64,000 nucleotides of DNA. Origin: a virus. Of this stretch, positions 4,976-56,900 are shown in pieces. Position 1 is the first letter of the stretch. The number at the start of each line of letters is the position of its first letter. The position numbers and the translations under genes were made by a program. The notes under the pieces were generated by a model that worked only from the letters and a program-made list of their open reading frames with translations, did not search any database and had not been told where the DNA came from. Location of the stretch: IMG/VR virus record IMGVR_UViG_3300022745_000001, positions 1 to 64,000 of that record. One strand, given 5' to 3'.

Positions 4976-4983
4976 GGCGCATC

Positions 4984-6448: not shown

Positions 6449-6633
6449 TTCTGAGATTGCTCCAATTCGTTTTTGATAGCCAGCGCATTCGCACCAGCCG
6501 ATTCAACAGCAGCCACTGCCCCAGCAACTAGAGCCACTTGCCCGATAGCTACCTGATTGGTAGTCACCCAAGCAGATAGGCCAGCGCAGCCGGATAAAGA
6601 GATTGCGGTGAGTGCGATAAGTAGGGTTTTCAT
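6445..6633 (-). CDS. small lipoprotein, o-spanin-like
   Basis: 62-aa ORF. Signal peptide plus lipobox MKTLLIALTAISLSGC. 4-nt overlap with the next gene. Confidence 0.5.
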   Translation of the reverse strand: MKTLLIALTAISLSGCAGLSAWVTTNQVAIGQVALVAGAVAAVESAGANALAIKNELEQSQK

Positions 6634-6643
6634 GGTGTGCTCC

Positions 6644-7792
6644 TTAAAGACCTGCTGCGGCTAGACGTGCTGTGAGGGATTCGATTAGGGCTTGCTGCTC
6701 TTTGATTGCAGCGACCAATAAAGGGATAACGTCTGTGTATTGAACGCCCAGCTTTGAAGCATCAGAAGCGTCAACAGCTTCTGGAAAAACTGCTTGCACA
6801 TCTTGAGCTATTAGAAAACTGCGTCGGGTTCCGTCAGGGTCTGTCTTATATTTACCAATGACTGAACGCAATGCTTTTGTTTTTTCTACTGCACCACTTA
6901 TTGGCTCAATAATGTCTTTAAACCGCTCGTCCGAAGTTGCAGTCCAAGCAGTATTTCCAGACACAAGATATACGCCAGAACCTGCTGTATTCAAGACGTA
7001 AAAGTTAGCGCCAGCAGAAGCGGAATTTGTGCCAAACCCCCAGACCTGACCCGAGCCAATGTAATTATTGAAGCTCGTGTTTACGGCATTTACAGAACTA
7101 CTTCCGACCGCAAGCCGCCCGCTGGCATCAAGCGTCATTGCAGATACACCAGTTATCACGCCACCAGCAGTTCCTGAAATAGCATTTTGCCAAACGTGTT
7201 GACCAGCATTTTGGTAATAGCGTGTTGCTACCCCAGTATTTATATAGCGATCATTGGCGTTATCTGTATACCAGTTAGTTGATACTGTCGTAATGGCAGA
7301 TGCTGATCCTATTGAGCCCCATACCCCAAGCTGGATTGATTTGTAAGCACTACCCCACGCACTCGGAGTAACACCCAAGCCAAGGTTGCCGGAGGTGTCT
7401 AGGGTGGCGTGTAGCGTAGTACCTGCATTGCCGCTGAAGTTCAATCCGTTACCAGAGGCTACCGATCCTGAGTAAGCAGACGTTCCAGTAATGATTGTCC
7501 CGCCAGTAGAGGACTCGATACCGGCATAGAAGTTAGTCCCAGTGTTAGCAAATCGCAGATACTTACCGGAGGTTGTTGCTCCTGTGTTGGAGAGCATTTC
7601 TCCTGTAGCACTCGCACTCAGCGTAGTAAACGCACCCGTTGAGGGGGTGGTTGCGCCGATTGGTGTGGAGTTGATCGCGCTGGTGACCAACGATGGAATG
7701 GTCATCGCTGATGTGGTGAAGCTGAACGCATCAACACCTCCCACCTGCACTTTGCTGGTGGTGCTATTGACGGAAATTATCGAAGTAGTCAT
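6644..7792 (-). CDS. tail fibre paralog A with a C-terminal S74-type intramolecular chaperone domain
   Basis: 382 aa. N-terminal GATTPSTGAFTTLSA box. C-terminal SDERFK...LIAQDV...AIKEQQALIESLTARL (about 6644-6934) matches the autoproteolytic chaperone pattern. Confidence 0.8.
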   Translation of the reverse strand: MTTSIISVNSTTSKVQVGGVDAFSFTTSAMTIPSLVTSAINSTPIGATTPSTGAFTTLSASATGEMLSNTGATTSGKYLRFANTGTNFYAGIESSTGGTIITGTSAYSGSVASGNGLNFSGNAGTTLHATLDTSGNLGLGVTPSAWGSAYKSIQLGVWGSIGSASAITTVSTNWYTDNANDRYINTGVATRYYQNAGQHVWQNAISGTAGGVITGVSAMTLDASGRLAVGSSSVNAVNTSFNNYIGSGQVWGFGTNSASAGANFYVLNTAGSGVYLVSGNTAWTATSDERFKDIIEPISGAVEKTKALRSVIGKYKTDPDGTRRSFLIAQDVQAVFPEAVDASDASKLGVQYTDVIPLLVAAIKEQQALIESLTARLAAAGL

Positions 7793-20822: not shown

Positions 20823-20850
20823 AAAAGAAAAGGGGCCGAAGCCCCTTTTC
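20823..20850 (-). terminator. intrinsic terminator downstream of the capsid gene
   Basis: Minus strand reads GAAAAGGGGC-TTCG-GCCCCTTTTCTTTT: a GC stem with a tetraloop and a T-run. Confidence 0.7.
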
Positions 20851-20855
20851 TGCGT

Positions 20856-28583: not shown

Positions 28584-28828
28584 CAGACTTTCTTCGAGAT
28601 GCCGTAGCCCTTGTAGCCGTTGATGCTGCCGCCTTTGGCGTAGCCCTTGGTACTACGGCTGGCACGCGCTTTTGCTACTTCGGCGTCCTCTTCGGCCATG
28701 TTGGCACGCTTGTCGTCGGCAGCCTTCTGATTCTTCATCGTTGCCGCTGTCGGATTTCCAAGCGAGTTGTTCTCGTCAGTCAAACGAAAAGCGTCTTTGA
28801 GCGACGGGGGGCTTTCTTTGATTCCCAT
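28583..28828 (-). CDS. small basic protein with YAKGGSI
   Basis: 81-aa ORF. 1-nt overlap with the terL start. Confidence 0.6.
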   Translation of the reverse strand: MGIKESPPSLKDAFRLTDENNSLGNPTAATMKNQKAADDKRANMAEEDAEVAKARASRSTKGYAKGGSINGYKGYGISKKV

Positions 28829-28829
28829 A

Positions 28830-29378
28830 TCAATCCTTCGGGGTTACGGTTTCTATCTCGACCACCTTTGGAATAAGGGTCGCCAGTCGGGCGGCGGTTG
28901 CCCGCACACGCGCCTGCAACTCCTCGGAGGTCGCGTCGATTTTCTTGATTTCCACACGTTCTGTAAAGCTGCCAATCTCGGTCAGCTTGCCCAGCAGCTC
29001 AATGGCCTTCAGACGTATGCGTGCATCGGGGTGTTTGGACTCTTCAAGGAGCTTGGCTACGACATAGCCGCGCATCTCCTTGGCCTGCTCGACGTAGGCC
29101 CAGTCGTACTCGCTGAGCATCCCAGCAAGATGTTTCACAGCTTGTGGCACGCGTAGCGTGGCAACGGCCTTCTTCTTTTCGGCGTCTGTCAGGTCGGGGT
29201 TTGTCACGGCGGCGAATGCCTGCCGCGCGGCGTCCTTCTGGTTGTCACTCACCACGGTAGTGGTGTCCACGGCGTCGAGCCAGTGGGCGGTGGTGGCCTG
29301 TGCGTCCAGCAGTTCTGTGGTGTCCATGTCTTCGAAGTCATCGAAGTCAGGATTAAGTAAGTGTTCCAACGGTTTCAT
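28830..29378 (-). CDS. terminase small subunit candidate
   Basis: 182-aa acidic ORF, first gene of the late block. Contains ARIRLKAIELLGKLTEIGSF, resembling TerS helices. Confidence 0.45.
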   Translation of the reverse strand: MKPLEHLLNPDFDDFEDMDTTELLDAQATTAHWLDAVDTTTVVSDNQKDAARQAFAAVTNPDLTDAEKKKAVATLRVPQAVKHLAGMLSEYDWAYVEQAKEMRGYVVAKLLEESKHPDARIRLKAIELLGKLTEIGSFTERVEIKKIDATSEELQARVRATAARLATLIPKVVEIETVTPKD

Positions 29379-29406
29379 CGCAGCCTCTGGTAAGTGGCGT
29401 TGGCGT

Positions 29407-29434
29407 ATGGTACCATTCTGTCACGGCATCGCAA
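29407..29434 (-). promoter_or_regulatory. possible sigma70-like promoter for the late block
   Basis: Minus strand reads TTGCGA-N16-TACCAT, about 30 nt upstream of the 29378 start. Confidence 0.3.
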
Positions 29435-29486
29435 GCCGTCTTGCTTTATGTCATCTCCCTGACTTCCGGGTTGCCCCCGGACTTAC

Positions 29487-29519
29487 CCCCCAGATCGCAA
29501 GGTCTGGGGGTTATTTTTT
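29487..29519 (+). terminator. intrinsic terminator-like hairpin just upstream of the early promoter
   Basis: CCCCCAGA-tcgcaagg-TCTGGGGG followed by TTATTTTTT. Confidence 0.55.
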
Positions 29520-29529
29520 GCCCAAATAG

Positions 29530-29559
29530 TTGACAATTTTTGTCGGAAAATTTTATAAA
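29530..29559 (+). promoter_or_regulatory. sigma70-like early promoter
   Basis: TTGACA-N18-TATAAA in an AT-rich tract at the head of the plus-strand block. Confidence 0.55.
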
Positions 29560-29656
29560 AAATTTTTGGTATGTACTAGCTTAATTTTTAAGCAAAAACG
29601 GTAAGAACGGGTGCGGAATAGTGTTTTACGCGCGATGCACAGGGCCATCAAATCTT

Positions 29657-29677
29657 GGGGGGTTGGGGTAGGGTGGG
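29657..29677 (+). other. G-quadruplex-forming motif in the early leader
   Basis: GGGGGGTTGGGGTAGGGTGGG: four G-runs of at least 3 with 1-2 nt loops. Confidence 0.5.
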
Positions 29678-29759
29678 TCAGCCAGCCCCCGATTTAGGGA
29701 CATCAAACACCCCAAATAAACACGGATTGATGTAATAAAGGCATGAATTGAGGGTTCAA

Positions 29760-29776
29760 AGGGACATATTGTCCCT
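29760..29776 (+). promoter_or_regulatory. early hairpin palindrome, copy 0 (7-bp arms)
   Basis: AGGGACA-tat-TGTCCCT, 30 nt before the 29806 start. A TAGGGACA half-site lies at 29694-29701. Confidence 0.6.
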
Positions 29777-29805
29777 ACTCTTTGGTTCATTACTGGAGAT
29801 TTATT

Positions 29806-30228
29806 ATGTCTATCGCTATCCAAGTCAATGCTATTACCACTGCTATCAACCAAATGGTTGATGGGTTCCTATCCTTCGATGATGCCTGTGCAAAGGTGCG
29901 GGCCTATCGTGCGGCCGAGCAACTCGACGCGGACACCGCCCGCGAGTACATCCAAGTTGCCTTGCTTGCCAAGAAGCCAGAGTATCGCAAGCAGGTTACA
30001 GAGAATGGCAAGCCCGCTCAGGACAGCGCATTCAAGAAGGCCGTGACCCGCATGATGAGCGCTACAGACCCAGACAAGGGCGCTGTTGCCGAGCAAACCG
30101 GCGCAGTGACCAAGGCTGGCAAGAAGCTCAGCGCTGACCAGAAGGCGCTGAAAGAGTACATGGCAACCATCGTTGCAGAGTTGATGGCTCAGGGCTGGAC
30201 CAAGACTGATATCAAGGCTGCCATCTAA
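29806..30228 (+). CDS. early protein, function unknown
   Basis: Start moved to ATG 29806 (MSIAIQV...) behind GGAG, within track ORF 29782..30228. Confidence 0.65.
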   Translation: MSIAIQVNAITTAINQMVDGFLSFDDACAKVRAYRAAEQLDADTAREYIQVALLAKKPEYRKQVTENGKPAQDSAFKKAVTRMMSATDPDKGAVAEQTGAVTKAGKKLSADQKALKEYMATIVAELMAQGWTKTDIKAAI

Positions 30229-30230
30229 TT

Positions 30231-30253
30231 ACTAGGGACACAATGTCCCTAGT
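30231..30253 (+). promoter_or_regulatory. early hairpin palindrome, copy 1 (10-bp arms)
   Basis: ACTAGGGACA-caa-TGTCCCTAGT, starting 3 nt after the stop at 30228. Confidence 0.65.
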
Positions 30254-30368
30254 ATCTTGCGCTGTATATGTTAGTGAGCGCTTACGTTCGATGGGGGCTG
30301 GCGGGTTCCACCGTCTCGCCGCTCCACATCGCCCATTCCTTTTACTGCGATACGTTTAGGAGAATCTC

Positions 30369-30527
30369 ATGCTGACAACCCGCACCATCTTCTATCGCAA
30401 GATGTTTCGCAAAGCCATGCGTTCCTTCCGCTTCTGGCGGGCACAGGGCGCAGAGACGCGGCACTACAAGGACGAGGCACGCGCCATGCTCATCGCATAC
30501 CGTGATGCCAAGCTACACAACCTGTGA
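30369..30527 (+). CDS. 52-aa Arg-rich early peptide
   Basis: Hand-translated MLTTRTIFYRKMFRKAMRSFRFWRAQGAETRHYKDEARAMLIAYRDAKLHNL behind TAGGAG. Below the track cutoff. Confidence 0.5.
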   Translation: MLTTRTIFYRKMFRKAMRSFRFWRAQGAETRHYKDEARAMLIAYRDAKLHNL

Positions 30528-30622
30528 CTTGTCACAGTCGCGCGACCCGTAACAGAACCCGTGTGACAACCAACTCTCCGTGCCTTGCGTGCAGGGCATC
30601 GGGGGCGACTTGCCCATAACCC

Positions 30623-30641
30623 TAGGGACACATTGTCCCTA
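30623..30641 (+). promoter_or_regulatory. early hairpin palindrome, copy 2
   Basis: TAGGGACA-cat-TGTCCCTA, followed by CCTCTAGGAGATTGACATG. Confidence 0.65.
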
Positions 30642-30657
30642 CCTCTAGGAGATTGAC

Positions 30658-30873
30658 ATGACACAACTACGCACCATCAACCGCAGCAACCACTACCTCG
30701 GCATCCTTGCCAAGCTGCAGTCCGAACGCGAGGCCCGTGAGATAGCCGACTCACTCAACCCACCCGTTGCTGCAACCCGTTGCGGCGGCACATACCAGAC
30801 CCATTACTTTGGTGACGTACGTATTACGTACAAGCGCAGCCGCGCAGCAGTCATGATTCGCTTTTCTTACTAG
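30658..30873 (+). CDS. early protein, function unknown
   Basis: 71-aa ORF behind GGAGATTGAC. Its TAG stop lies inside the next palindrome. Confidence 0.65.
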   Translation: MTQLRTINRSNHYLGILAKLQSEREAREIADSLNPPVAATRCGGTYQTHYFGDVRITYKRSRAAVMIRFSY

Positions 30874-30891
30874 GGACTAACTGTCCCTAGT
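30869..30891 (+). promoter_or_regulatory. early hairpin palindrome, copy 3 (variant loop)
   Basis: ACTAGGGAC-taact-GTCCCTAGT. Confidence 0.6.
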
Positions 30892-31009
30892 ACATATACC
30901 TAAGATTTGACAAACCCGATTTGTACTAGGTGTCATGTTGCGGTAGGTTGGGTACCATCTAAGGCGTTTACCCAATGAAATCAACAACTTAGCGATTTCA
31001 AACGCCCCT

Positions 31010-31096
31010 ACACACACATATACATAATACAGATATATATGAGAGAGTGTATATATACATATATGTGTGTCTATCTATAAATATATGTTTGTATCG
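31010..31096. repeat. AT-rich alternating purine-pyrimidine tract with an 11-bp inverted repeat
   Basis: ACACACATATA (31012-31022) and TATATGTGTGT (31060-31070), plus TA/CA/GA dinucleotide runs. Lies in the 313-bp gap 30874-31186. Confidence 0.7.
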
Positions 31097-31186
31097 AAAA
31101 ATGAATTTTCTGTGGCTGTTGTTTTCGCCGGAATTTCGGCCGGCACCGTGCTATACTCATATGCCAACCACTGAAAGGACTCAAAA

Positions 31187-32032
31187 ATGGCTGATTTACG
31201 CACCATCATGCTCGAACAGGGCGTGTCACCCCACACTGCGGAGGCTGTTCTACTAGCCTACACCGCTGCTCGTAAGCAACGCAAGGAACCAGACGCCATC
31301 TGGAGCGCTCTGCTTTCCAAAGCCAAGGCCGCTCGATTGAACATCACGTCCAATCGACCCAAGCGCGTAGGCAACCCCGTTGCACCCTTGTATGAGGAAT
31401 ACTACGATCTTATATGCAGCGCCATTGCCAAGATCGAGGAGGCATCGCTCCTCCTACTAGACGACGGCAAGCCGGTGCAGCCAAAGGATTTGGAGGCCAA
31501 GCGTGCCCAGACAAACAAGCGCCGCGCGGAAGAAGGCAAGCCCTTGCTAGCCGAGTGCATGGCTGACGCATGGCACACATGGATCGCACCCCAGACACGC
31601 GCCGACTTCCAAGAGAAGGTGCGCCAGTTCTACGCCAACAGCAACGCCACCCGCAAGGGCGGGCGCTTCACCCCATTCGTACTGCAGGCCGACAAGACCT
31701 CACTCACGAATGCCACAAACAAACTGTTGCAAGACCTGACGGAGCATCGTACCTTGCACAAGATGCCCGAGGCACCGGACAACGGCAAGGCATGGGGCAG
31801 CACCCGCTACTCCGCGCTTCAGCTTCGCATGGTGGCTGAAGGGTTCAAAGAACTGCGCTTGTATGGTGAGGCCGTGCGCGATGGGCGCATCGACCCGCTG
31901 ATTGACCCGCCGCCCAAGGACTGGCGGATGCTGTTGCCCGGCGACTTCCGTGCCCGCTTGCGTGCCGCTGATGCGAACCCGCCCGCCACTGAGCTGACGG
32001 ACTACGAAGAGCGGAACTTCTTGGCGGCATAG
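31187..32032 (+). CDS. early protein, function unknown
   Basis: 281-aa ORF. No motif recognised. Confidence 0.7.
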   Translation: MADLRTIMLEQGVSPHTAEAVLLAYTAARKQRKEPDAIWSALLSKAKAARLNITSNRPKRVGNPVAPLYEEYYDLICSAIAKIEEASLLLLDDGKPVQPKDLEAKRAQTNKRRAEEGKPLLAECMADAWHTWIAPQTRADFQEKVRQFYANSNATRKGGRFTPFVLQADKTSLTNATNKLLQDLTEHRTLHKMPEAPDNGKAWGSTRYSALQLRMVAEGFKELRLYGEAVRDGRIDPLIDPPPKDWRMLLPGDFRARLRAADANPPATELTDYEERNFLAA

Positions 32033-32036
32033 CACC

Positions 32037-32267
32037 ATGCCCCGCAGCGACACTATCTTTAGGGTGACTTCAGGCGCTTTCGGTAGGCTGAAGTTTCACA
32101 ACGTGCCCGATGAGTTGCTGGACTTCAAAGACCCGGACGGGCGTTTGAAGAAAGCCAGCCGCAACCTGCACATCTACCCACGCTATATAGGCGCACAGCC
32201 GTGGGACACGGACATTGACTTGCTTAACAAGCTGCGTTGGTACGTCAACGGGCTTAAGCAGTCATGA
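32037..32267 (+). CDS. early protein, function unknown
   Basis: 76-aa ORF. Confidence 0.6.
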   Translation: MPRSDTIFRVTSGAFGRLKFHNVPDELLDFKDPDGRLKKASRNLHIYPRYIGAQPWDTDIDLLNKLRWYVNGLKQS

Positions 32268-32274
32268 ATCGAAC

Positions 32275-32293
32275 TAGGGACACATTGTCCCTA
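32275..32293 (+). promoter_or_regulatory. early hairpin palindrome, copy 4
   Basis: TAGGGACA-cat-TGTCCCTA, 8 nt after the stop. Confidence 0.65.
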
Positions 32294-32299
32294 CCCGTC

Positions 32300-32316
32300 G
32301 CCAGTCGGTTACTGGC
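32300..32316 (+). promoter_or_regulatory. second hairpin of the bipartite cassette
   Basis: GCCAGT-cggtt-ACTGGC. Confidence 0.5.
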
Positions 32317-32334
32317 AAATCAAAGGAGATTGAC

Positions 32335-32523
32335 ATGACAACAAACCGACGCCCCACGTACCGCGTGAACTCCGTCACCCTCAAAGACGGACGCTACCTG
32401 CGCTTCTCGCACCGGTTCAATACTTGGCAAGTCCTTGATCGTGTGGGTAACTGGCGCAACGTGCGCCCTGAACTGGCCCGCTGCTATGCGGCAGCAGGGA
32501 TGATGATTGGGGTGCAGGTATGA
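32335..32523 (+). CDS. early protein, function unknown
   Basis: 62-aa ORF behind GGAGATTGAC. Confidence 0.65.
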   Translation: MTTNRRPTYRVNSVTLKDGRYLRFSHRFNTWQVLDRVGNWRNVRPELARCYAAAGMMIGVQV

Positions 32524-32696
32524 CCAGCAAAGCCTTCATCGCAAACCTGCTTGCCCTCGCCAGTATGCCTCGCATACTGGACGACGATGAGCAATACGAT
32601 GCACTGCAAGAAACACTTCATTCTGCTCACGTCGATGCGTACTGGGAAGATCGGTATGAGCGCGAGTGGGAAGAAGAACAGAACGACTGGGAGTAG
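32520..32696 (+). CDS. 58-aa acidic early peptide
   Basis: ATGA overlap with the upstream stop. Hand-translated MTSKAFIANLLALASMPRILDDDEQYDALQETLHSAHVDAYWEDRYEREWEEEQNDWE. Confidence 0.5.
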   Translation: MTSKAFIANLLALASMPRILDDDEQYDALQETLHSAHVDAYWEDRYEREWEEEQNDWE

Positions 32697-32736
32697 CACG
32701 CCTATCACCAGTCATGAAAGCGCCGCCAAGAGCGCA

Positions 32737-32755
32737 CGGTTAACGCTGTTAACCG
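32737..32755 (+). promoter_or_regulatory. 8-3-8 hairpin with a different sequence
   Basis: CGGTTAAC-gct-GTTAACCG, 60 nt before the 32815 start. Confidence 0.45.
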
Positions 32756-32814
32756 CTACGGCCGCCTGTCCGCCACAGGCACAACAACGAGGCATAGACC
32801 TCATGGAGATTGAC

Positions 32815-34344
32815 ATGAAAGATCGTTCCTTCCCAACTATTTGGGCACAAGCTGTTCGCGCCATCAACCGCGTCAACCGCTATCAGTATTTTGTCGAGAC
32901 GGATACCTACGCCTACGGCCCACACAAATGGTGGCTTAGTATCACCCACGCGTTCGACCTACACCCTGTGGTCGCCCACATCGTAGGTACCGAGATGATA
33001 CGCCCCATCGACTGGCAACTGCTGTTGCTGGAGTGGCCGCACGTCAGCACTGATGACGACAGCCAGATCGCCTACACACGCAACGAGGCCGCTGGCCGTG
33101 ACTTCATCGACAACGGCAGTCGCCGTCAGACCCGCACGTCTATCGGCAAGTACCTAGCTCGCCACTGGCCCCATGTGGCTGACCATGTGCGCCGTGATTG
33201 GGCTGGCCGACACGCAGCCAGCGTGTGCGAGATTTGGGATACCAAGGAGGGCATCATCAGTGGTGTCGAGCTTGGCCCACGCTCGTGCATGAAGTCAACC
33301 TATGGCAGCATCCCGTTCAGCAGCGGCGACAACGCAGCGTTGGTGCAGTATCGTGCTGGCAACTGCGAGTCCAGTGACGTAGCATGGGACTACCACCCCT
33401 ACTCGGTGTATGACCCCGCACTCGGCTGGCGCATGGCAGTGCGCTTGGAGAAGGGCAAGCCTGACCTCGTGCTGGGTCGTGCGCTGGTGCACACAGAGCA
33501 GAAGACGTTCGTGCGCAGCTACCTGCGTGGTGAGACGGAGAGCAGCACATCGTACACAGACGAGAAGCTCGAAGCATGGCTGCGTGAGCAGGGCTACAAC
33601 AAGGCTGACGGCTGGGTGTTCGGTACCAAGTTCGCCAAGGTGTCGCACCCCAGTCAGGGCGGATACATGATGCCGTACATCGACGGCGGGTATCGCAACT
33701 GCGAGGAGGATGGCAACTACATCGTGCTGGTGCGCCGTGGTGGCTACTGCTGTGACAACACAGACGGTACGTTCGACAACCGTGAGGCGATGGGTGATTG
33801 CGAGGACTGCGGCGAGACTGTGTATGAGGAAGATGATGACCGCATCTGGGTTGGCCGCAGCGAGGATCGCCTGATCGGCGGTGCGTGTGGTTGCGCCAAC
33901 AACTATCGCTGGTCTGAGGGCTACCGTGGCGAATACTATGTGCACGAGGATGATGTGATCGTCGTTGGTCGTACAAACTACGACCAGACTAGCTTGCCTG
34001 CGTGCATCAGGGAGCTGCATGATGGAGAGTACGCACACGAGGACGACTGCGTGTACATCGAGAACTGCGATGCGTACTACCTGTACGATGACTGCGTGAG
34101 GTGCGAGACTGACGACGACTACTACGTCAATGATGACGACGAGATCGTTGAGATCGACGGCAAGTATTACCGCAAGGATGACGACGAGGTAGTCAAGTGC
34201 GCTGACGATGAGTACCGCATGAGGGACGAGTGCTGGCAGTGCGCATACAGCGAAGAGTGGTACCCCGATGAAGATGACGGCGTAGATGTCGCGGAGGGCA
34301 AGTATCACCCCGACTCGCTGCGCGAGATGGCAGACAACGCTTAA
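32815..34344 (+). CDS. early protein with a highly acidic, Cys-rich, Tyr/Asp-repeat C-terminal region
   Basis: Start set at MKDRSF (ATG 32815) behind GGAGATTGAC, inside track ORF 32551..34344. C-terminal repeats of type YYVHEDDVIVV / YYVNDDDEIVEI / YYRKDDDEVVKC. Confidence 0.7.
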   Translation: MKDRSFPTIWAQAVRAINRVNRYQYFVETDTYAYGPHKWWLSITHAFDLHPVVAHIVGTEMIRPIDWQLLLLEWPHVSTDDDSQIAYTRNEAAGRDFIDNGSRRQTRTSIGKYLARHWPHVADHVRRDWAGRHAASVCEIWDTKEGIISGVELGPRSCMKSTYGSIPFSSGDNAALVQYRAGNCESSDVAWDYHPYSVYDPALGWRMAVRLEKGKPDLVLGRALVHTEQKTFVRSYLRGETESSTSYTDEKLEAWLREQGYNKADGWVFGTKFAKVSHPSQGGYMMPYIDGGYRNCEEDGNYIVLVRRGGYCCDNTDGTFDNREAMGDCEDCGETVYEEDDDRIWVGRSEDRLIGGACGCANNYRWSEGYRGEYYVHEDDVIVVGRTNYDQTSLPACIRELHDGEYAHEDDCVYIENCDAYYLYDDCVRCETDDDYYVNDDDEIVEIDGKYYRKDDDEVVKCADDEYRMRDECWQCAYSEEWYPDEDDGVDVAEGKYHPDSLREMADNA

Positions 34345-34356
34345 CAACCAAGGAGA

Positions 34357-35580
34357 ATGACAATGACTAGCAAACCTACTACCCCTGTTGTGGCATACGC
34401 ACCGTACGTCAAGCCCAAGTATGAATACTCGCACCTACCGCTGGTAACAGCGGGGGATGTGCCCAGCACCATGCTGATGCAGACACTGCACCGTGCGCTC
34501 AGCGTCAAGCGTGACCACGGTAGCATGAGCGAGGCGCGGTTCGTGGCGTGGCTGGTGAACCGCCTGCCCGTGACGATGATCGACGGCGCTGGCAACGTGC
34601 ACGTTGACTTGCGTGAAGGCCCACACCACCGCACGATGTTCACAAGCCATACCGATACTGTGCATCAGGGCGGTGGGGCCAATAACATCAGGCTCGATGC
34701 GAGTCAGCAGTCACGAATTGTTTGGCGTGCCGATGAGGGTGCCTGCCTTGGTGCAGATGATGGTGCCGGTGTTGCGCTCATGATGCACATGATCGACCGC
34801 AAGGTGCCGGGCTTGTATGTGTTCTTCCGTGGCGAGGAGTGTGGTGGCCTTGGCTCTAGCTGGATGGCCGATGACTTTCCCAAGTGCCTCAAAGACATTG
34901 ACCGCTGCGTGTCGTTCGACCGTGCTGGCTATAGCGATGTGATCACCCATCAGGGTGGTGCGCGTTGCTGCTCCGATGCGTTCGCACTTGCGCTGGCTGA
35001 TGCGTTGACCACGATGGACATGACGCTGGCCTTCTCGCCCAGCAATGCGGGTGTGTTCACCGACAGCGCCAATCTCGTGTACAAGGTAGCTGAGTGCACC
35101 AACGTCAGCGTGGGCTACAAGCATCAGCATGGCGATGGCGAGTGGCAAGATGTCAGCTTCCTGCAGCAGCTTGCTGACCAACTCTGCCTCGTTGACTGGG
35201 ATGCGCTGCCTGTCGAGCGTGACCCCAGCGTTGCACAGCCTAAGTACAAGTACACAACCGGCATCTATGATCCGCATGGTGCGTTCGCAGCCGACTACTG
35301 GCCTGAGCAGAAGGCAGACAAGGTAGCCAACACCGGCGACGAGTACAAAGACTTGCTGATCGAGGCGCTATGGGATGCCAGTGTGGGTATGTACTTCTCA
35401 CTCAAAGAGATCGTGTCCGCATGGATGTGCCCCGAGGAGCCGTCTACCTACCGCCATCTGATCGACGGCAAGCGTATGTCCGACATTATGTATGAGCAGT
35501 TCGCCGTTGGCCTGACCGATGGCACTGACACATACGAAGAAGTGTTGGACATCCTTACCGAAGACCTGACACGTAGCTAA
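34357..35580 (+). CDS. M28/M20-type zinc peptidase-like protein
   Basis: 407 aa. Motifs SHTDTVH, GADDGAGVA, RGEECGGLGS and VGYKHQHG, in the order expected for co-catalytic zinc peptidases. Confidence 0.55.
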   Translation: MTMTSKPTTPVVAYAPYVKPKYEYSHLPLVTAGDVPSTMLMQTLHRALSVKRDHGSMSEARFVAWLVNRLPVTMIDGAGNVHVDLREGPHHRTMFTSHTDTVHQGGGANNIRLDASQQSRIVWRADEGACLGADDGAGVALMMHMIDRKVPGLYVFFRGEECGGLGSSWMADDFPKCLKDIDRCVSFDRAGYSDVITHQGGARCCSDAFALALADALTTMDMTLAFSPSNAGVFTDSANLVYKVAECTNVSVGYKHQHGDGEWQDVSFLQQLADQLCLVDWDALPVERDPSVAQPKYKYTTGIYDPHGAFAADYWPEQKADKVANTGDEYKDLLIEALWDASVGMYFSLKEIVSAWMCPEEPSTYRHLIDGKRMSDIMYEQFAVGLTDGTDTYEEVLDILTEDLTRS

Positions 35581-35583
35581 TCT

Positions 35584-35602
35584 TAGGGACAAGCTGTCCC
35601 TA
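35584..35602 (+). promoter_or_regulatory. early hairpin palindrome, copy 5
   Basis: TAGGGACA-agc-TGTCCCTA, 4 nt after the stop. Confidence 0.65.
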
Positions 35603-35607
35603 CCGCC

Positions 35608-35624
35608 GCCAGTCGGCCACTGGC
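35608..35624 (+). promoter_or_regulatory. second hairpin of the bipartite cassette (copy 2)
   Basis: GCCAGT-cggcc-ACTGGC. Confidence 0.5.
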
Positions 35625-35641
35625 ATTCTTAGGAGATCGTT

Positions 35642-35848
35642 ATGAAATTGTTCAACCCGTTCAAAGCACCTAGCGCAACACATCTTGCGGTACAGGAATT
35701 AGAAGATGCCAAGCGTGAACTGCTTGCATCCCTGAGCGCACAGGAGTACGCCACGGCAATGGTTGCGTACAACACCGACCGAGTGCGCCGCCTGTCGGCC
35801 ACCGTGTCTTCCAGCAGTCATGATTTTTTGGAAGGAGAAGTGAAGTGA
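35642..35848 (+). CDS. hypothetical protein
   Basis: 68-aa ORF behind AGGAG. Confidence 0.6.
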   Translation: MKLFNPFKAPSATHLAVQELEDAKRELLASLSAQEYATAMVAYNTDRVRRLSATVSSSSHDFLEGEVK

Positions 35849-35928
35849 TGGACTGGATTGACTGCGTGGTCATCACGCTCGCTGGGCTGTACGCCCTTGT
35901 CTTAACCATGATGGAGCATTTCAAATGA
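35848..35928 (+). CDS. possible 26-aa hydrophobic peptide
   Basis: MDWIDCVVITLAGLYALVLTMMEHFK, linked to both neighbours by overlapping stop/start codons. Confidence 0.3.
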   Translation: MDWIDCVVITLAGLYALVLTMMEHFK

Positions 35929-36137
35929 CACTGGATGACTTTGACAACGCGGTTGCGTTCATTCTCGAACGCGCCGACGACAACGGCATTGAAGAGTGGT
36001 ATACGACAGACAGAAACATACTGAAAAGCATACTGAACGATATGCGCGAGTGCTATTACGGCGAGGAGGTGCAGCGCCGCACCGATTTTGCAGAGTACCA
36101 ACGGCTGAAAGCCATTTTTGAAGGAGAAGGCAAATGA
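35925..36137 (+). CDS. hypothetical protein
   Basis: 70-aa ORF. Confidence 0.6.
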   Translation: MTLDDFDNAVAFILERADDNGIEEWYTTDRNILKSILNDMRECYYGEEVQRRTDFAEYQRLKAIFEGEGK

Positions 36138-36325
36138 TCGAAGTAACTTTTACTGAACTCGCCCTGCTTGTCTGGGCGCTACTCGCAACGGCATACGCCC
36201 TGCGCTACCGGCACGAACGCTCGATGCTCAGCCGCATCCTGCAGCAGCTCACTGAAGACCCCACGCTGTACGCACAGTTGCGGGACGGCTGGGAATCTGT
36301 ACGAAAATCTTTTGTCAAGAGTTGA
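36134..36325 (+). CDS. small membrane protein
   Basis: 63-aa ORF with a TM segment LALLVWALLATAYAL. ATGA overlap. Confidence 0.6.
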   Translation: MIEVTFTELALLVWALLATAYALRYRHERSMLSRILQQLTEDPTLYAQLRDGWESVRKSFVKS

Positions 36326-36342
36326 ACTTTTACTGCTATAAT
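36312..36342 (+). promoter_or_regulatory. sigma70-like promoter (TTGTCA-N19-TATAAT) with the conserved downstream box TATAATCACAGCACAACA
   Basis: Same -10 and downstream box as at 53776-53818. Confidence 0.45.
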
Positions 36343-36374
36343 CACAGCACAACACATTTACCGGAGAAAATGAC

Positions 36375-36416
36375 ATGAGCAAAACCCTACTTTCTGCACG
36401 CCAAGTTAAGACCTAA
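36375..36416 (+). pseudogene. orphaned original 5' end of the AAA ATPase gene (13 codons then stop)
   Basis: ATG AGC AAA ACC CTA CTT TCT GCA CGC CAA GTT AAG ACC TAA = MSKTLLSARQVKT*, compared with MSKTLLSSRQVKQ at 36976. Preceded by the usual GGAG..TGACATG context. Confidence 0.7.
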
Positions 36417-36469
36417 AGGTGTTGACACCTTTGGCAAGACGTTGTACATTGAGGCTTTAAGGAACAGCT

Positions 36470-36979
36470 ATGGCACAACCTTGCGGAAAAGACAACACGG
36501 CCTACAAACATGGATTTGCGGTGCAGGGCAAGCGCCCTGCAATATATTGGCACTGGCGACACATGATCGCTAGGTGCCATGAGCCACGCTCCAAGGACTA
36601 CCACAAATACGGTGCGCGAGGGATTGTCGTGTGTGATCGTTGGCGCTACGGGGAGGACGGTGTTAGCGGCTTTGTCTTGTGGTTGCAAGACATGGGGCCG
36701 AAGCCGTATCCCGGAGCATCAGTAGACCGTAAAGACAACGACAAAGGGTACGCACCAGACAACTGTAGGTGGGCCTCGGTACACGAGCAGGCAAACAACC
36801 GCAGAACCAATGTGCTTGTAACAGCTTTCGGGCAAACAATGACCGTTGCACAATGGGCACGCACGCTAGGGATAGGGCCAAAGACTATCGGCTACAGGCT
36901 ACGGCAAGGCGCTTCGCCGGAAGAAGCACTTATGAAAAAACCGCATCGCGGAACTAAACTTAAATCGAGATCGACATGA
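36470..36979 (+). CDS. HNH-family homing endonuclease (paralog of 48399..48866)
   Basis: 169 aa. Pattern WRHMIARCHEP..KDYHKYGARGIVVCDRW...DRKDNDKGYAPDNCRWASVHEQANNRR, plus a C-terminal HTH-like TVAQWARTLGIGPKTIGYRLRQG. Confidence 0.7.
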   Translation: MAQPCGKDNTAYKHGFAVQGKRPAIYWHWRHMIARCHEPRSKDYHKYGARGIVVCDRWRYGEDGVSGFVLWLQDMGPKPYPGASVDRKDNDKGYAPDNCRWASVHEQANNRRTNVLVTAFGQTMTVAQWARTLGIGPKTIGYRLRQGASPEEALMKKPHRGTKLKSRST

Positions 36980-38103
36980 GCAAGACATTACTTTCATCCC
37001 GTCAAGTTAAGCAGCTTATCAAGGCTGTTGGTAACAAGCGAACTGTGCTGGTAGAAGGGGAGGCAGGCTGTGGCAAGACATCCATTCACTACGCGCTGAA
37101 GGCCGACCCTCAGTTCGCCAACTACTACGCGCCCAAGCCCATTGACTGCACGCAGTTGAGCGATGGCTCCATCGTGATGCCCGACATCGACCGCAGCCGT
37201 GGCGTGGCGCGTGAGCTGCCCAACGAGCGCTTGGGTGTGAGCGACGAGAACCACTTGGGCACCAAGGATGCGACCCCTGTGCTGATGTGCTTCGATGAGA
37301 TCGCCAAGTCTCGTCAGTTCATCAAGGACACCATCGCACCTATCGTGTACGAGCGGCGCATCGGCAACTACGTCATGCCCAATGGCAGCGTGGTGTTCGC
37401 CTGTACCAACCTGAGCGAAGAGGGTTTGGGCGACAGCCTTGCTGCACACCTGCGCAACCGCTTGGTCATCGTCGGTATGCGCAAGCCTACCAAGGACGAG
37501 TGGGTGCAGGACTTCGCCATCCCCAACGACCTCAACGAGAACGTCATAGCTGCGGCTGAGATGTACCCGATGGTGTTCAACTCGTTCATGGACTATCGCC
37601 CCGGCGGTCAGTTCGCAAGCAAGCAGTTGCGCAAGGACAACCCGTACATCAGCGACCCCGCTGACGCAGGACAGGAGCAGGTGGTCACACCTCGCTCGCT
37701 GCACGCAGCCAGTGATCTGGTCGATCAGATGGCGCACGTTGACAACCAGACGCTCCAAGCTGCGCTGGGCGGCACAGTGGGCGAGCCGTTCGCAGCCAAC
37801 ATCATGTCGATGATCCGCTTCGGTGAGAGCCTGCCTGCATTCGACCGCATACTTGCCGACCCCGAGGGTAGCCCGCTGCCATCCAACCCCACTGCGCAAG
37901 TGGTACAATGCTTTCAGTTCCTCACGCAAGTGAAGGACAAGGAGGCAGCGGAGCAGACCAGTATCTACGTGCAACGGATGCGTGAAGAGATGCAATCTCT
38001 GTTTGTCAACTGTGTTGTTAACAGCACCAAGATGGACAAGTTTGCATTGAGCAAGACGTTTGGTTCTGCCCTTGCCAAGAATCGACAGTACCTTGGTCAG
38101 TAA
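36976..38103 (+). CDS. AAA+ ATPase, MoxR/CobS-like
   Basis: 375 aa. Walker A GEAGCGKTS and Walker B LMCFDEIAK. Paired with a downstream VWA protein. Confidence 0.8.
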   Translation: MSKTLLSSRQVKQLIKAVGNKRTVLVEGEAGCGKTSIHYALKADPQFANYYAPKPIDCTQLSDGSIVMPDIDRSRGVARELPNERLGVSDENHLGTKDATPVLMCFDEIAKSRQFIKDTIAPIVYERRIGNYVMPNGSVVFACTNLSEEGLGDSLAAHLRNRLVIVGMRKPTKDEWVQDFAIPNDLNENVIAAAEMYPMVFNSFMDYRPGGQFASKQLRKDNPYISDPADAGQEQVVTPRSLHAASDLVDQMAHVDNQTLQAALGGTVGEPFAANIMSMIRFGESLPAFDRILADPEGSPLPSNPTAQVVQCFQFLTQVKDKEAAEQTSIYVQRMREEMQSLFVNCVVNSTKMDKFALSKTFGSALAKNRQYLGQ

Positions 38104-38112: not shown

Positions 38113-38592
38113 ATGGCTGAGTTTATCTTTCGCCCAGAAGAGGGCTATATAGATCGCGTGTTCAAGAACGGCACGGTGCGCACGCGTGTAGGAACAGACA
38201 CCGGTAGCGGCCACCTTGTCGTAAACACACGCGGTGGGAAGAAACTTGTGCACCGTTTGTTGTGGGAAAGTGTACACGGGTCAATTCCTAAAGGGCTTGA
38301 GCTTGACCACATCAACGGAAACAGAAAGGACAACCGTATCAGCAACCTGCGCTTGGTCAGTCGCAAGCAGAATGCCGAGAACCGTAGCAAGCCCCATAAG
38401 GGCAACACCAGTGGGGTGAAGGGGGTATCTTGGTACAAACGCTACGCGAGGTACGTTGCACAGATTTGCGTAAATGGCGAACGGATTACGTTGGGGTACC
38501 GCAAAACTTTGGAGGAAGCGCAAGCGCTTTACGCCGAGGCTGCTGCGAAGTACCACACCCACAATCCGTCAGCAGATAGCGGGAGCATCTGA
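38113..38592 (+). CDS. free-standing HNH homing endonuclease with a C-terminal AP2-type DNA-binding domain
   Basis: 159 aa. LELDHINGNRKDNRISNLRLVSRKQNAEN (HNH), then GVSWYKRYARYVAQICVNGERITLGYRKTLEEAQALY (AP2-like). Confidence 0.8.
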   Translation: MAEFIFRPEEGYIDRVFKNGTVRTRVGTDTGSGHLVVNTRGGKKLVHRLLWESVHGSIPKGLELDHINGNRKDNRISNLRLVSRKQNAENRSKPHKGNTSGVKGVSWYKRYARYVAQICVNGERITLGYRKTLEEAQALYAEAAAKYHTHNPSADSGSI

Positions 38593-42950: not shown

Positions 42951-43697
42951 ATGAGTAAAGCAAAAGTGATCCATGAGTACCTCCAGTCGCATCCCGATGC
43001 GCTGGTGGCCGACATCGCAAAAGCGACAGGCCTAGTCAACAGCGACATCGCAGCGCGGCTGTGTGGGCTGCGGGACAAGGGCATAGCGGTGTCCACGGAG
43101 GCAGGGCGCAGCCTGTCCAACCGGCCCATCCTGCGCTGGTCGCTGACCGGCAAGACGTTCGACAAGCCCAAGCCTCGTGAACCTAAGCAGAAAGAATACG
43201 TATCCTCACAGCCGAACATCAGTCTGGATGCGTTAGTGGAGAGCATGGCCGAGGGGCTGGTGGCGGCGCTGGTGCAGAAGGTCAAGGCCAAACTGCCCGC
43301 CGCACTGGCCGGTGTCACGCCTGCGGCACACCTCACGCTGCCCGCTCCAGCCCCTGCGGCGGTGGCGCTACCTGCGCCTGAGCCCACCCCCGCACCACGC
43401 ACCTACAAGCCCGTCATCGGCGTTGTGGGCCTTCTGCCGCAGCAAGCCGGGGCGTTGCAGGAGAAGTTCGGCGGGTCACTGGACATCCGCTTCTGGAACG
43501 ATGGCGACGACAAGGGGCGGCTGCGCTCCATTGCCGACAACTGCGAGGCTGTGTTCCTGCACACACGCCACGCCGGGCACCATACCGACCAGATGCTGAA
43601 GACCTACAGCGCCAACCTGCGCCGCGTGACCGGCGGCACGAGCAACATGGAGGTGGCGATCCGTGGGTACTTTGTGAATAAGGAGACAGCGAAATGA
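42951..43697 (+). CDS. winged-helix DNA-binding protein with a C-terminal domain of unknown function
   Basis: Start at MSKAKVIHEYL behind AAAGGAGAAG. The N-terminus HEYLQSHPDALVADIAKATGLVNSDIAARLCGLRDKGIAV is MarR/wHTH-like. Confidence 0.55.
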   Translation: MSKAKVIHEYLQSHPDALVADIAKATGLVNSDIAARLCGLRDKGIAVSTEAGRSLSNRPILRWSLTGKTFDKPKPREPKQKEYVSSQPNISLDALVESMAEGLVAALVQKVKAKLPAALAGVTPAAHLTLPAPAPAAVALPAPEPTPAPRTYKPVIGVVGLLPQQAGALQEKFGGSLDIRFWNDGDDKGRLRSIADNCEAVFLHTRHAGHHTDQMLKTYSANLRRVTGGTSNMEVAIRGYFVNKETAK

Positions 43698-46654: not shown

Positions 46655-46866
46655 TCGAAGACACCGAAGCCCTTGTGTGCGTTGACATCCGCTACCGCCA
46701 GCAGATGGGCATCAAGAAGTACGGCACTACGGTGGCAGGCAACAAGCTGACACAGCGCCAATGGCTGCAACACCACTACGAAGAGCTGCTTGACGCAGCA
46801 GTTTATGCCAAAAGACTTTTACAGGAGATGGACGATGAAACTGGACGGAATGCACGTAATGGTTGA
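46651..46866 (+). CDS. hypothetical protein (weak MazG-like helical pattern)
   Basis: 71 aa. ...QQMGIKKYGTTVAGNKLTQRQWLQHHYEELLDAAVY. Confidence 0.4.
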   Translation: MIEDTEALVCVDIRYRQQMGIKKYGTTVAGNKLTQRQWLQHHYEELLDAAVYAKRLLQEMDDETGRNARNG

Positions 46867-47353
46867 TCTGGAGACGCTGGGCACTGCGCCCGGCTCTGTG
46901 ATCATTTCTCTGGGCGCAGCCCAGTTCAATGAAGGTGGCGTGATCAGCACCTTCTACCGGCGCATTGATGCACAGTCTTGTGTACGCGCAGGCTTGACGA
47001 TGGACGCATCCACGGTGGAGTGGTGGATGAACCAGAGCGCCGATGCGCGTCATGTGTTCACCCAAAAGGGTGACGCGTTGCACGATGCGCTGCACGACTT
47101 CTGCGGTTGGTTCCCCAAGGGGGCATGCCTGTGGGGTAACGGCGCTACGTTTGACAACGTACTGCTCGACAGCGCGTATCGGGCAATCAAGCTGGATAAG
47201 CCTTGGCCCTATTGGGGCGACCGCTGCTACCGCACGGTGAAGGCTTTGTACAAACACATTGAGGCCGACCCGTTTGAAGGCGTGAAGCACAACGCGCTCG
47301 ATGACGCAGTACATCAGGCCCGCCACGTAGTGAAGATTGCAAATGACGCTTAA
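46835..47353 (+). CDS. DEDDh 3'-5' exonuclease (DnaQ-like)
   Basis: Start at MKLDGMHV behind AGGAG. Motifs VDLETLG, NGATFDNVLL and HNALDDAVHQA. Confidence 0.75.
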   Translation: MKLDGMHVMVDLETLGTAPGSVIISLGAAQFNEGGVISTFYRRIDAQSCVRAGLTMDASTVEWWMNQSADARHVFTQKGDALHDALHDFCGWFPKGACLWGNGATFDNVLLDSAYRAIKLDKPWPYWGDRCYRTVKALYKHIEADPFEGVKHNALDDAVHQARHVVKIANDA

Positions 47354-56612: not shown

Positions 56613-56900
56613 ATGGGTTACCACTTCAAAACGAAGCGGTTGGCTAAGCAGGCTTCCCAAGGACAGGGGACACGCTTAGCCAAACTCGCTGTATCAAAAG
56701 GGCTGTCTGTCCAACAGATCGCCACCATTACCGGCGCGTCACGCGCCACGGTTTACAACTGGTTTGCCGGGGCTGAAGTGTCGAAGGCGTACAAGGCTCA
56801 TGTGCAGGCACTTATCCACAAGTTGCGCACAGGAACAGAAGAAGAAATCGTGGAATTGCAGGGCGCGAAGGCGTATATTCCACCCTTGCTTTTGATCTAG
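56613..56900 (+). CDS. HTH DNA-binding protein
   Basis: 95 aa. LSVQQIATITGASRATVYNWFAG. Confidence 0.6.
   Translation: MGYHFKTKRLAKQASQGQGTRLAKLAVSKGLSVQQIATITGASRATVYNWFAGAEVSKAYKAHVQALIHKLRTGTEEEIVELQGAKAYIPPLLLI

Follow-up and report, generated by a model that had tools for sequence, protein, structure and literature searches.

Repetitive extragenic palindromic elements and bacterial interspersed mosaic elements (REP/BIME) of enterobacteria are short palindromes that lie just past stop codons in operons. The REPs stabilise the upstream mRNA against 3′ exonucleases and, when near a stop codon, affect translation of the upstream gene; they are imperfect, measure 35–40 nucleotides (nt), number in the hundreds per chromosome and are associated with RAYT transposases. 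In phage T7 the early RNase III sites define mRNA ends and stabilise the products, RNase III requiring a duplex of about 20 base pairs (bp), usually with internal loops. The boxB hairpin of phage lambda, with a 5-bp stem and a conserved pentaloop, is read by the arginine-rich N protein at two sites per genome. In coliphage N4 the virion carries a T7-like RNA polymerase domain within a giant protein, host SSB stabilises the extrusion of hairpins from supercoiled DNA, and a heterodimeric RNAPII serves the middle genes. The early promoters of coliphage N4 are hairpins that are read by a virion RNA polymerase (PMC3715699, PMC4496689), and the promoter-early stem-loop (PeSL) cassettes of T4-type phages hold an early promoter of the sigma70 consensus together with an AT-rich upstream element (PMC2839356, PMC4122927). 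Here we describe a family of perfect palindromes between the early genes of an uncultured phage, IMG/VR record IMGVR_UViG_3300022745_000001, of which positions 1 to 64,000 (the window) were analysed.

Intercistronic stem-loop cassettes that double as recombination linkers are a kind of element already known, and the PeSL cassettes are the nearest likeness. As in PeSL, the units described here are repeated intergenic cassettes of about 50–100 nt between small early ORFans (ORF, open reading frame), with a stable stem-loop inside and the Shine–Dalgarno (SD) sequence and start codon of the next gene at the end; they are conserved within the genome, and in close relatives the junctions of indels and replacements fall inside them. 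They differ in having no promoter-like site at the hairpins and in being perfect palindromes of 7–11 bp with 3-nt loops and a sequence of the genome's own, in a phage of about 70 kb that has an N4-like layout and is unrelated to T4. With REP/BIME they share the position just past stops and a species- or genome-specific sequence, but here the palindromes are perfect, 17–25 nt long and present in 2–7 copies per phage. Like the T7 RNase III sites they place a structured element in each gap of an early polycistronic mRNA, host transcription of which we infer for this phage; unlike them, the stems are only 7–11 bp long, and folding each gap as a whole adds no more than short closing helices, which are not conserved. 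The hairpins match no Rfam family and no described phage element: a cmscan search of 29000–37000 against Rfam (E ≤ 5) returned only sub-threshold chance matches, none of them at the hairpins, and the papers on the pelagiphages HTVC023P and HTVC027P mention no comparable element. We tentatively favour the explanation, plausible though short of probable, that they are factor-independent intercistronic RNA stem-loops, which stabilise or insulate cistrons in a host-transcribed early mRNA, are homogenised by recombination and serve as linkers for the shuffling of ORFans.

Palindromes and cassettes in the early block

The window was scanned with the pattern TAGGGACNNNNNGTCCCTA, allowing up to two mismatches, with 100 shuffled sequences as control. 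Matches were found at 29759, 30233, 30623, 30871, 32275 and 35584 and nowhere else in the 64 kb, whereas 0.06 were expected and no single shuffle gave more than one; the scan thus recovers the six copies that a first-pass annotation, made from the bare sequence, had listed. The palindromes have the form TAGGGAC-N5-GTCCCTA (hairpin A) and lie on the plus strand across 29759–35602. Within the window the heptamer TAGGGAC occurs only at these six sites and, at 29695, in an isolated half-site (TTAGGGACA, 29694–29702, plus strand) whose partner arm is absent. The arms are 7–11 bp long and the loop has 3 nt in five of the six copies (perfect-hairpin scan), and as RNA the cassette stem-loops have folding energies of −7.8 to −16.1 kcal/mol, those of the six palindromes themselves being −10 to −16 kcal/mol. 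All six copies are non-coding, as the first-pass annotation had held, in a plus-strand early block (29380–36500) of which about 19% is non-coding by a count over the ORF table, so that the chance of this placement is about 5e-5. The scan of the whole window found no copy in the late genes (minus strand, 1–29378) or in the replication genes (about 36.4–59.9 kb), from which the palindrome had also seemed absent by eye.

Copy 1 (aAGGGACA-tat-TGTCCCTa, 29759–29777, −10.0 kcal/mol) has 7-bp arms at 29760–29776 with an A·A mismatch just outside them. It is located in a 5′ leader, with no gene before it and the ATG of the first early gene (29806) 28 nt downstream; in relatives this leader holds orthologous hairpins of other sequence. 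Copy 2 (TACTAGGGACA-caa-TGTCCCTAGTA, 30230–30254, −15.9 kcal/mol) begins 1 nt past the TAA at 30226–30228 and is separated by 114 nt from the next credible start, at 30369; its arms are 11 bp long. Copy 3 (30623–30641, 8-bp arms, loop cat) lies 3 nt past the TAA of a possible 31-codon ORF (30524–30619), and its end is 5 nt from the SD sequence and 16 nt from the ATG at 30658. The left arm of copy 4 (TACTAGGGAC-taact-GTCCCTAGTA, 30868–30892, 10-bp arms, 5-nt loop) contains the TAG stop of the gene at 30658–30873, and the next credible start, 31187, is 294 nt away. Copy 5 (32275–32293, 8-bp arms, loop cat) is 7 nt past the TGA at 32265–32267, while copy 6 (35584–35602, 8-bp arms, loop agc) is 3 nt past the TAA of a peptidase gene (34363–35580).

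These positions amend the first-pass annotation in part. The 7-bp arms of copy 1 stand, whereas copy 2, given there 10-bp arms, has one pair more, and what had been called a variant loop in copy 4 is the 5-nt loop between 10-bp arms. Five of the six copies had been placed within 8 nt past a stop codon: copies 2, 4, 5 and 6 are so placed, copy 1 follows no gene, and copy 3, set apart as an exception 95 nt past a stop, is close to that of the possible 31-codon ORF. Five had likewise been placed 16–45 nt before a start codon; this is true of four, at 16–41 nt, and not of copy 4, and copy 2 remains the exception that it was said to be.

Hairpin A is part of a larger cassette, with the order stop codon, 0–8 nt, hairpin A, an optional hairpin B, a G-poor spacer, SD sequence and ATG. 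Three of its traits had been overlooked in the first pass, namely a second type of hairpin, a covarying hairpin B after three of the cassettes and the repetition of the hairpin flanks, which fall into direct-repeat families (D1–D7 and D17). The gap at 32697–32814 is the sole early gap of at least 60 nt without a copy of TAGGGACA, and it holds the type-2 hairpin, of the same shape (CGGTTAAC-gct-GTTAACCG, 32737–32755, plus strand, 8-bp arms, 3-nt loop; perfect-hairpin scan). Every real gap of at least 60 nt in the early block has a hairpin.

Hairpin B has the consensus GCCNGT-cggyy-ACNGGC and lies on the plus strand, 6–8 nt downstream of three upstream hairpins. It is found 6 nt after copy 5 (GCCAGT-cggtt-ACTGGC, 32300–32316), after the type-2 hairpin as a variant with a compensatory change of A–T to T–A (GCCTGT-ccgcc-ACAGGC, 32764–32780) and after copy 6 (GCCAGT-cggcc-ACTGGC, 35608–35624), where a relative that is 90–96% identical to the window has GCCGGT-cggcc-ACCGGC, again a compensatory change. 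Over seven copies from the window and its relatives all 42 of the 42 cells are paired, one position varying between A–U, G–C and U–A and another between C–G and A–U, with one G·U. The covariation score was reached by none of 500 shuffles, and in slid registers pairing falls to 19–57%.

The 3′ end of the cassette is formed by a translation-initiation module, GGAGATTGACATGA, at 30648–30661 and again at 32325–32338 and 32805–32818 on the plus strand, with a variant, GGAGATCGTTATGA, identified by the direct-repeat analysis at 35632–35645 (plus strand). On the 5′ side is a box, CAGTCATGA, at 30848–30856 (plus strand) and again at 32259, 32709 and 35815; these boxes fall in differing reading frames or in non-coding sequence. 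The 9-mer occurs six times on the plus strand (the four sites named, 42795 and 57610) and not at all on the minus strand, with about 0.24 expected per strand. It often stands at gene junctions with an ATGA stop/start overlap and may be a shared gene-boundary linker. Two further candidates were rejected. A 24-codon ORF (32264–32338) runs through hairpins A and B, from an ATGA overlap with the upstream TGA stop to another with the next ATG; a stop lies inside it in a 93%-identical relative, and it is therefore read as coincidence. Long-range pairing of the gene-end box (GUCAUG) with the start region (CAUGAC) appeared in two gaps (z about −2.5) and was not kept in others.

Shared architecture and exchanged hairpins among relatives

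No match to 29400–36400 was found by blastn among 50,697 phage records, and the large terminase (TerL) has its best identities, 44–46%, with the pelagiphages HTVC027P and HTVC023P and a few environmental phages. A near-identical genome, also from an uncultured phage (IMGVR_UViG_3300022744_000004, 70,157 bp), is 90–96% identical to the window over most of the shared length. Its 127-nt end overlap indicates that it is circular or terminally redundant, and the six exact palindrome matches listed for it all lie in the early region (1–7711 of the contig). Early regions of further relatives were recovered from viral and metagenome collections with the terminase, the early peptidase and a 509-residue early protein as anchors. 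At least 13 related phage contigs share the architecture, each with several copies of its own palindrome.

In a near-identical phage (L144) the palindrome is TAGGGACA, in six copies, and at 98% TerL identity (L145) it is TAAGGACA-cat-TGTCCTTA, in two. At 88% it reads GGTTAGC-agc/gct-GCTAACC (L282, two copies), at 83% TGCGGAGA (L154, three copies), at 79% AAAGGGAC together with ATGGG[C/T]AG...CT[G/A]CCCAT, which contains a compensatory pair (L147), at 78% GGGGAGA-N3-TCTCCCC (L231/L148, five copies) and at 77% AGAGAGA-N2-TCTCTCT (L235, four copies). Two contigs at 66% carry TGTGGACA-ttt-TGTCCACA in six copies plus a variant with another lower stem (L236) and TAGGACA-N2-TGTCCTA in five copies (L153). 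The group at 47–49% has TTCCGTC-N4-GACGGAA (L196, four copies), ATCTGTC-N4-GACAGAT (L203, three copies) and TCCTGAC-N4-GTCAGGA (L166, three copies), and a contig with 32% identity in an early protein (L224) has at least six copies of CGGTTGACA-NN-TGTCAACCG, of the GGTTGAC type. The architecture is thus kept down to about 47% TerL identity; two more distant contigs (L156 and L189) have unrelated stems with UUCG or CUCG loops, 5–6 nt before the SD sequence.

The geometry is tightest between stop codon and hairpin (0–8 nt) and between hairpin and SD sequence (5–11 nt). Where both signals were called the two distances are often short, although about one third of these copies, by crude gene calls, are more than 100 nt from the next start. 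In those relatives' loci that include 6–10 kb of late genes, all copies are in the early part.

Outside the clade the motifs behave differently. Scans of public collections, covering viral contigs and 185,579 species genomes, gave almost only single matches at chance rate among the matches listed, and therefore no evidence that the motif mimics a REP element of the host. None of the bacterial genomes among these matches has many copies of the palindrome. The exceptions were a near-identical phage (L101), a tandem array on an unrelated giant-virus-like contig (L102) and arrays in Silicimonas (L338, L366). On L102 (5960–6090) tandem CATAGGGACAggaTGTCCCTATAAGG repeats stand on a contig that encodes a giant-virus-type major capsid protein, and the sharing of the motif is by chance. 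In a Silicimonas metagenome-assembled genome (L366, 5340–5450) and in L338 (2768–2809) the palindrome (G)GTAGGGACA-N3-TGTCCCTA(C) is repeated in tandem about five times with a spacing of about 23 nt; the array sits between divergent genes, beside an ORF with a likeness, judged by eye, to ArdC-type antirestriction proteins, and from its appearance it could serve a mobile element as iterons, centromere or operators.

Comparison of the copies points to pairing as the conserved property. Three to four Watson–Crick pairs (at least three) extend the stem beyond the 7-nt core in nine of 45 copies, against 0.7 expected, and the extensions use five sequences: TAC/GTA, CGG/CCG, GAT/ATC, AAT/ATT and GCTA/TAGC. 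Across genomes each stem position shows several pair types, so that, judging from the sequences, the pairing of the hairpin appears to be under selection. Covariation, which the first-pass annotation had proposed to look for among relatives, is found in these extensions as in the pairs of hairpin B.

By contrast, the identity of the stem appears to be exchangeable. Between the window and the 90–96% identical relative, two orthologous sites with intact flanks have exchanged their hairpin types reciprocally: CGG-TTAACgctGTTAA-CCG of the window, at 32737, corresponds to CGG-TAGGGACAattTGTCCCTA-CCG in the relative, and TAGGGACAagcTGTCCCTA, which follows the peptidase gene of the window, corresponds to CGGTTAACgctGTTAACC, of the type CGGTTAAC-gct-GTTAACC. 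At the site orthologous to copy 2, L145 carries TACTAAGGACA-aat-TGTCCTTAGTA and L282 GGTTAGC-gct-GCTAACC. Nor does the loop seem to be read. It occurs in both orientations within single genomes, as the reverse complements agt/act in L231 and agc/gct in L282, and across genomes the central base may be A, G, C or T. The central purine that had been remarked on in the loops is present on the coding strand in the window, but this does not extend to the relatives, whose loops include act, ttt, att and gct. On the sense strand C exceeds G in both flanks (149 versus 102 and 161 versus 104; p = 0.004 and 0.0006).

The cassettes are also breakpoints. When the window is compared with the 90–96% identical relative, a replaced segment begins just past copy 4 and ends at the cassette of copy 5, which survives as a 61-nt island of 93% identity amid replaced sequence; downstream of copy 5 the relative contains one ORF more, and 600 nt are inserted in it at the point that corresponds to window position 35842, next to a CAGTCATGA box. 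Recombination between copies would homogenise the hairpin and so give each genome its own sequence, as we propose, and the repetition of the flanks along with the hairpins is what such homogenisation leads one to expect.

Transcription of the early block and possible readers of the hairpin

A sigma70 promoter scan of 28800–37000 returned four sites, none of them at any hairpin, and manual inspection of the hairpin flanks found none either, in agreement with the earlier view that these are not ordinary promoters. One promoter considered within the cassette, with the TTGACA inside GGAGATTGACATGA as its −35 element, was rejected because it has no −10 partner at the right spacing. The best sigma70-like candidate for early transcription is TTGACA-18-TATAAA at 29530–29559 (plus strand), about 200 nt upstream of copy 1, which a strict promoter rule misses because position 6 of its −10 element is A. 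Relatives have clusters of TTGACA/TTGACT where the window has this candidate, and with such sites upstream the host polymerase can account for early transcription.

The hairpins are not canonical intrinsic terminators, since the U-tract is absent, as had been noted. A terminator scan flagged copy 1 alone, and weakly (five T in eight positions), the other copies being followed by C-rich, T-poor sequence, although it found canonical terminators elsewhere in the genome, at 29487–29510 and 20826–20851. The first of these (plus strand; 10-bp stem, GCAA loop, T-run, −19.4 kcal/mol) stands where the late and early blocks diverge, immediately before the early promoter candidate, and has equivalents in relatives, among them L203 (1769–1792) and L166 (1693–1720); it may mark a genome end or insulate the early promoters.

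The first-pass annotation had considered N4-type promoters a matter that could not be tested, the N-terminal part of the giant virion protein lying outside the window. The complete protein, of 2,818 amino acids, was read from a near-identical contig (L124). Pfam detected only LPD38 in it, and neither PHROGs nor a phmmer search against all PDB sequences gave a match; a profile of 12 homologues matched only coiled-coil proteins and a tape-measure protein in the PDB. In the alignment of the 12 homologues no column is invariant over residues 243–1748, which leaves the conserved C-terminal third as the only possible location of a catalytic centre. An AlphaFold model of the C-terminal 1,070 residues is almost all helical (mean predicted local distance difference test score 67.7; 545 of the 1,070 residues at 70 or above), and a Foldseek search with it found nothing in the PDB at E ≤ 0.001, the matches listed including no polymerase. 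Most of the protein is coiled-coil; its C-terminal third, conserved and helical, bears LPD38 and an H-E-x-x-G-H motif. Proteins gp40–gp69 of N4 (gp50 included), a set of queries without gp15 and gp16, found no match by phmmer among the ORFs of the window and the giant proteins even at E = 10, and RNA polymerase families had none in the 29 middle/early and two late-strand ORFs scanned.

Two explanations place the function in DNA. Promoters of the N4 kind, extruded from supercoiled DNA and read by a virion polymerase possibly hidden in the 2,818-residue protein, are suggested by the geometry (5–7-bp stems and 3-nt loops in N4; PMC3715699), by the position of such hairpins in the first-expressed region with one of them ahead of the first early gene, and by a genome layout that mirrors N4, with the giant virion protein at the middle/late junction, a likeness in gene order only. 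Several hairpins also end 5–20 nt before the SD sequence, so that transcription starting just past the stem would give a normal short leader. However, the stems are 7–11 bp long, and there are six to seven sites per 6 kb, in almost every intergenic gap and abutting stops, where N4 has about three per genome. In N4 a purine at the centre of the loop (−11) and a G at −8 of the stem, both on the template strand, are the rule (PMC3715699); the purines at the loop centres of the window are on the coding strand and thus pyrimidines on the template strand, and among relatives the central base varies and may be a purine in one copy and a pyrimidine in another. With no polymerase signal in the giant protein by sequence, profile or modelled C-terminal fold, no detectable homologue of the virion polymerase or of a subunit of N4 RNAPII among the scanned ORFs and sigma70-like promoters upstream of the block, this explanation is very improbable. 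Duplex operators or roadblocks, at which a dimeric phage protein would tune or shut off early transcription, would account for perfect inverted repeats with free central bases and a constant spacing of half-sites in each genome, and for a motif that is genome-specific in the manner of immunity specificities. The window encodes helix-turn-helix proteins at 56613–56900 (HTH_23, E = 5e-6) and 42951–43697 (weakly MarR-like), and the same palindrome forms tandem operator-like arrays in the unrelated elements L366 and L102. Set against this, an operator has no need of stem extensions of three to four pairs, varied in sequence and beyond chance; the sites are tied to stop codons and SD sequences on one strand rather than to promoters, with no promoter-like site at the hairpins; the flanks are C-rich on one strand without mirror symmetry; and hairpin types are swapped between near-identical phages and heterogeneous in distant ones. 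Operators, one of the three hypotheses offered in the first pass, therefore fit poorly, and we consider them unlikely.

Other readings place a specific activity at the RNA, or dispense with function. A phage protein that reads the hairpin in RNA, whether a partner in antitermination of the lambda N/boxB type or an endoribonuclease specific to the hairpin, for the maturation or inactivation of early mRNA, would co-evolve with the stem. The copies within a genome are near-identical and the motif shifts in concert (TAAGGACA in both copies of L145, TAGGGACA in the window), an apical GA[C/G]A/T[G/C]TC is common to many genomes, and one hairpin in the leader of the first early gene with others directly past stops reproduces the geometry of nutL and nutR. 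Yet RNA-binding proteins usually read loops or bulges and not perfect A-form stems, and here the stems are long and the loops unconstrained and free to invert; six to seven sites per operon is far above nut-type systems; hairpins of two types occur side by side and replace each other at orthologous sites of near-identical phages, and L156 and L189 have unrelated hairpins at the same position. No candidate protein emerged, an N-like protein not having been searched for, and the only PHROGs match among the early proteins was the peptidase, so that these offer no candidate reader. We give such a protein a low probability, and the first-pass statement that a sequence-specific factor is implied is weakened by the same swap of the GGTTAAC type with TAGGGACA, by the hairpins of L156 and L189, by the flipped loops and by the co-repeated flanks, although a specific reader of some kind, protein or enzyme, on RNA or DNA, may still exist. 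At the other extreme the palindromes could be selfish or mutational products of template switching and gene conversion in tolerant intergenic DNA, offering homology for recombination and no regulatory function. The concerted evolution of the copies, the inversion of loops as in the classic flip-flop of hairpins, the replacement of hairpin heads within a retained CGG/CCG base and the breakpoints at cassettes would all follow, but a hairpin is present in every real early gap of at least 60 nt, orthologous positions keep one despite replacement of its sequence, the architecture persists to about 47% TerL identity, and no transposase or RAYT-like gene was found among the scanned ORFs; this we think rather improbable. 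It is also improbable, though conceivable, that the hairpins are cis-sites of a co-evolving activity that recognises them, an unrecognised virion-delivered or early polymerase, a stem-specific nuclease or an antiterminator, in a lineage that has the layout of N4 and none of its recognisable proteins. That activity would then find its specificity code in the genome-specific stem and the apical GA[C/G]A/T[G/C]TC.

RNA stem-loops that need no dedicated factor remain the tentative preference, and hairpins acting in RNA stability, processing or translation are the best supported of the three first-pass hypotheses. Several points weigh against it. A mere stability element does not require a stem that is perfect and alike in sequence from copy to copy, a uniformity that recombinational homogenisation, if it takes place, would explain. 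The apical stem GA[C/G]A...T[G/C]TC, with an A–T closing pair, recurs in nine of the first 11 genome-specific motifs, and something could read it. The role at the RNA level is one that we infer. G·T pairs number four to five and A·C one among the non-canonical pairs in genuine copies, a difference that is in the direction expected of RNA and suggestive only, since it is not significant and several of the wobbles are at the outermost position; the C-rich flanks may only mirror the general composition of mRNA leaders. Recognisable sigma70-like promoters number only two to three, the strongest failing the strict rule. Finally, copies 2 and 4 are far from any start, and insulation of translation is therefore not the whole story.

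Proposed mechanism, neighbouring features and implications

In the mechanism that we propose, the host RNA polymerase would start at sigma70-type promoters near 29.53 kb and read through the cassettes, and each palindrome would fold in the early mRNA as a perfect stem of 7–11 bp. Placed near the stop codon, and in several cases a few to about 20 nt before an SD sequence, the hairpin would act as mRNA punctuation without a dedicated factor. An endonucleolytic cut in the A/U-rich region of the stop codon may leave it to block exonucleases or protect the 3′ or 5′ ends of cistrons, and it may keep the downstream ribosome-binding site free of pairing with upstream coding sequence. In the DNA, the gene-end box, the hairpins A and B and the SD–ATG module of the cassette would together offer repeated homology for recombination, through which hairpin types would be exchanged and the small ORFans of the early block shuffled. 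Any specific effect on stability or translation is, like host transcription, put forward here as a tentative interpretation.

Several neighbouring features were recorded. Early and middle genes are oriented rightward, and the giant virion protein heads a leftward late block that ends in portal and terminase; no tRNA genes were found. A middle gene (46835–47353) encodes an Rv2179c-like 3′–5′ exoribonuclease (Pfam, E = 2.8e-49), which may matter if stable hairpins shield phage RNA ends from exonucleolytic decay. Between an ATPase gene and a VWA/metallopeptidase gene, 38113–38592 encodes a fusion of an HNH endonuclease with an AP2 DNA-binding domain, of the homing-endonuclease type.

Three further tracts lie in the gaps themselves. 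The 115-nt gap after copy 2 (30255–30368) folds unusually well (z = −3.6, equalled by no shuffle) through the helices GCGCT...AGCGC and GATGGGGGCTGGCGGG...CTCGCCGCTCCACATC, without a match in Rfam; its core, cgttcgatgggggctggcgggtt, is kept after the orthologous hairpin in L144, L145 and L282, and the gap may encode a small RNA or act as a leader. In the 313-nt gap that follows copy 4 is an A+T-rich tract of alternating purine and pyrimidine runs (31010–31095, acacacacatatacata...tatatatgagagagtgtatatatacatatatgtgtgtc), and relatives carry (TA)15 or the like at a similar point of the early region (L166/L300, 2142–2175; L189, 3525–3543; both in reverse-complemented coordinates); this tract could be an unwinding element or an origin. 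A quadruplex-like cluster of G-runs (GGGGGGttGGGGtaGGGtGGG, 29657–29677, plus strand) lies in the early leader, downstream of the promoter candidate and ahead of copy 1, and similar G-runs occur in the early-leader region of L236.

For the annotation of metagenomic contigs of this clade, 2–7 copies of one 7–11-bp palindrome provide a simple signature by which the early region can be recognised and its genes delimited. That the stem evolves in concert, and specifically in each genome, is sufficiently unusual to justify an experimental search for a reader. If the explanation that we favour is true, the PeSL idea would extend beyond the T4-type phages, with the promoter component absent. A widespread clade of uncultured aquatic phages, with relatives that reach to the pelagiphages HTVC023P and HTVC027P (about 44% TerL identity), would then arrange its fast-evolving early genes as plug-in units, each bounded by a perfect, genome-specific stem-loop that both punctuates the mRNA and supplies the homology by which ORFans are swapped.

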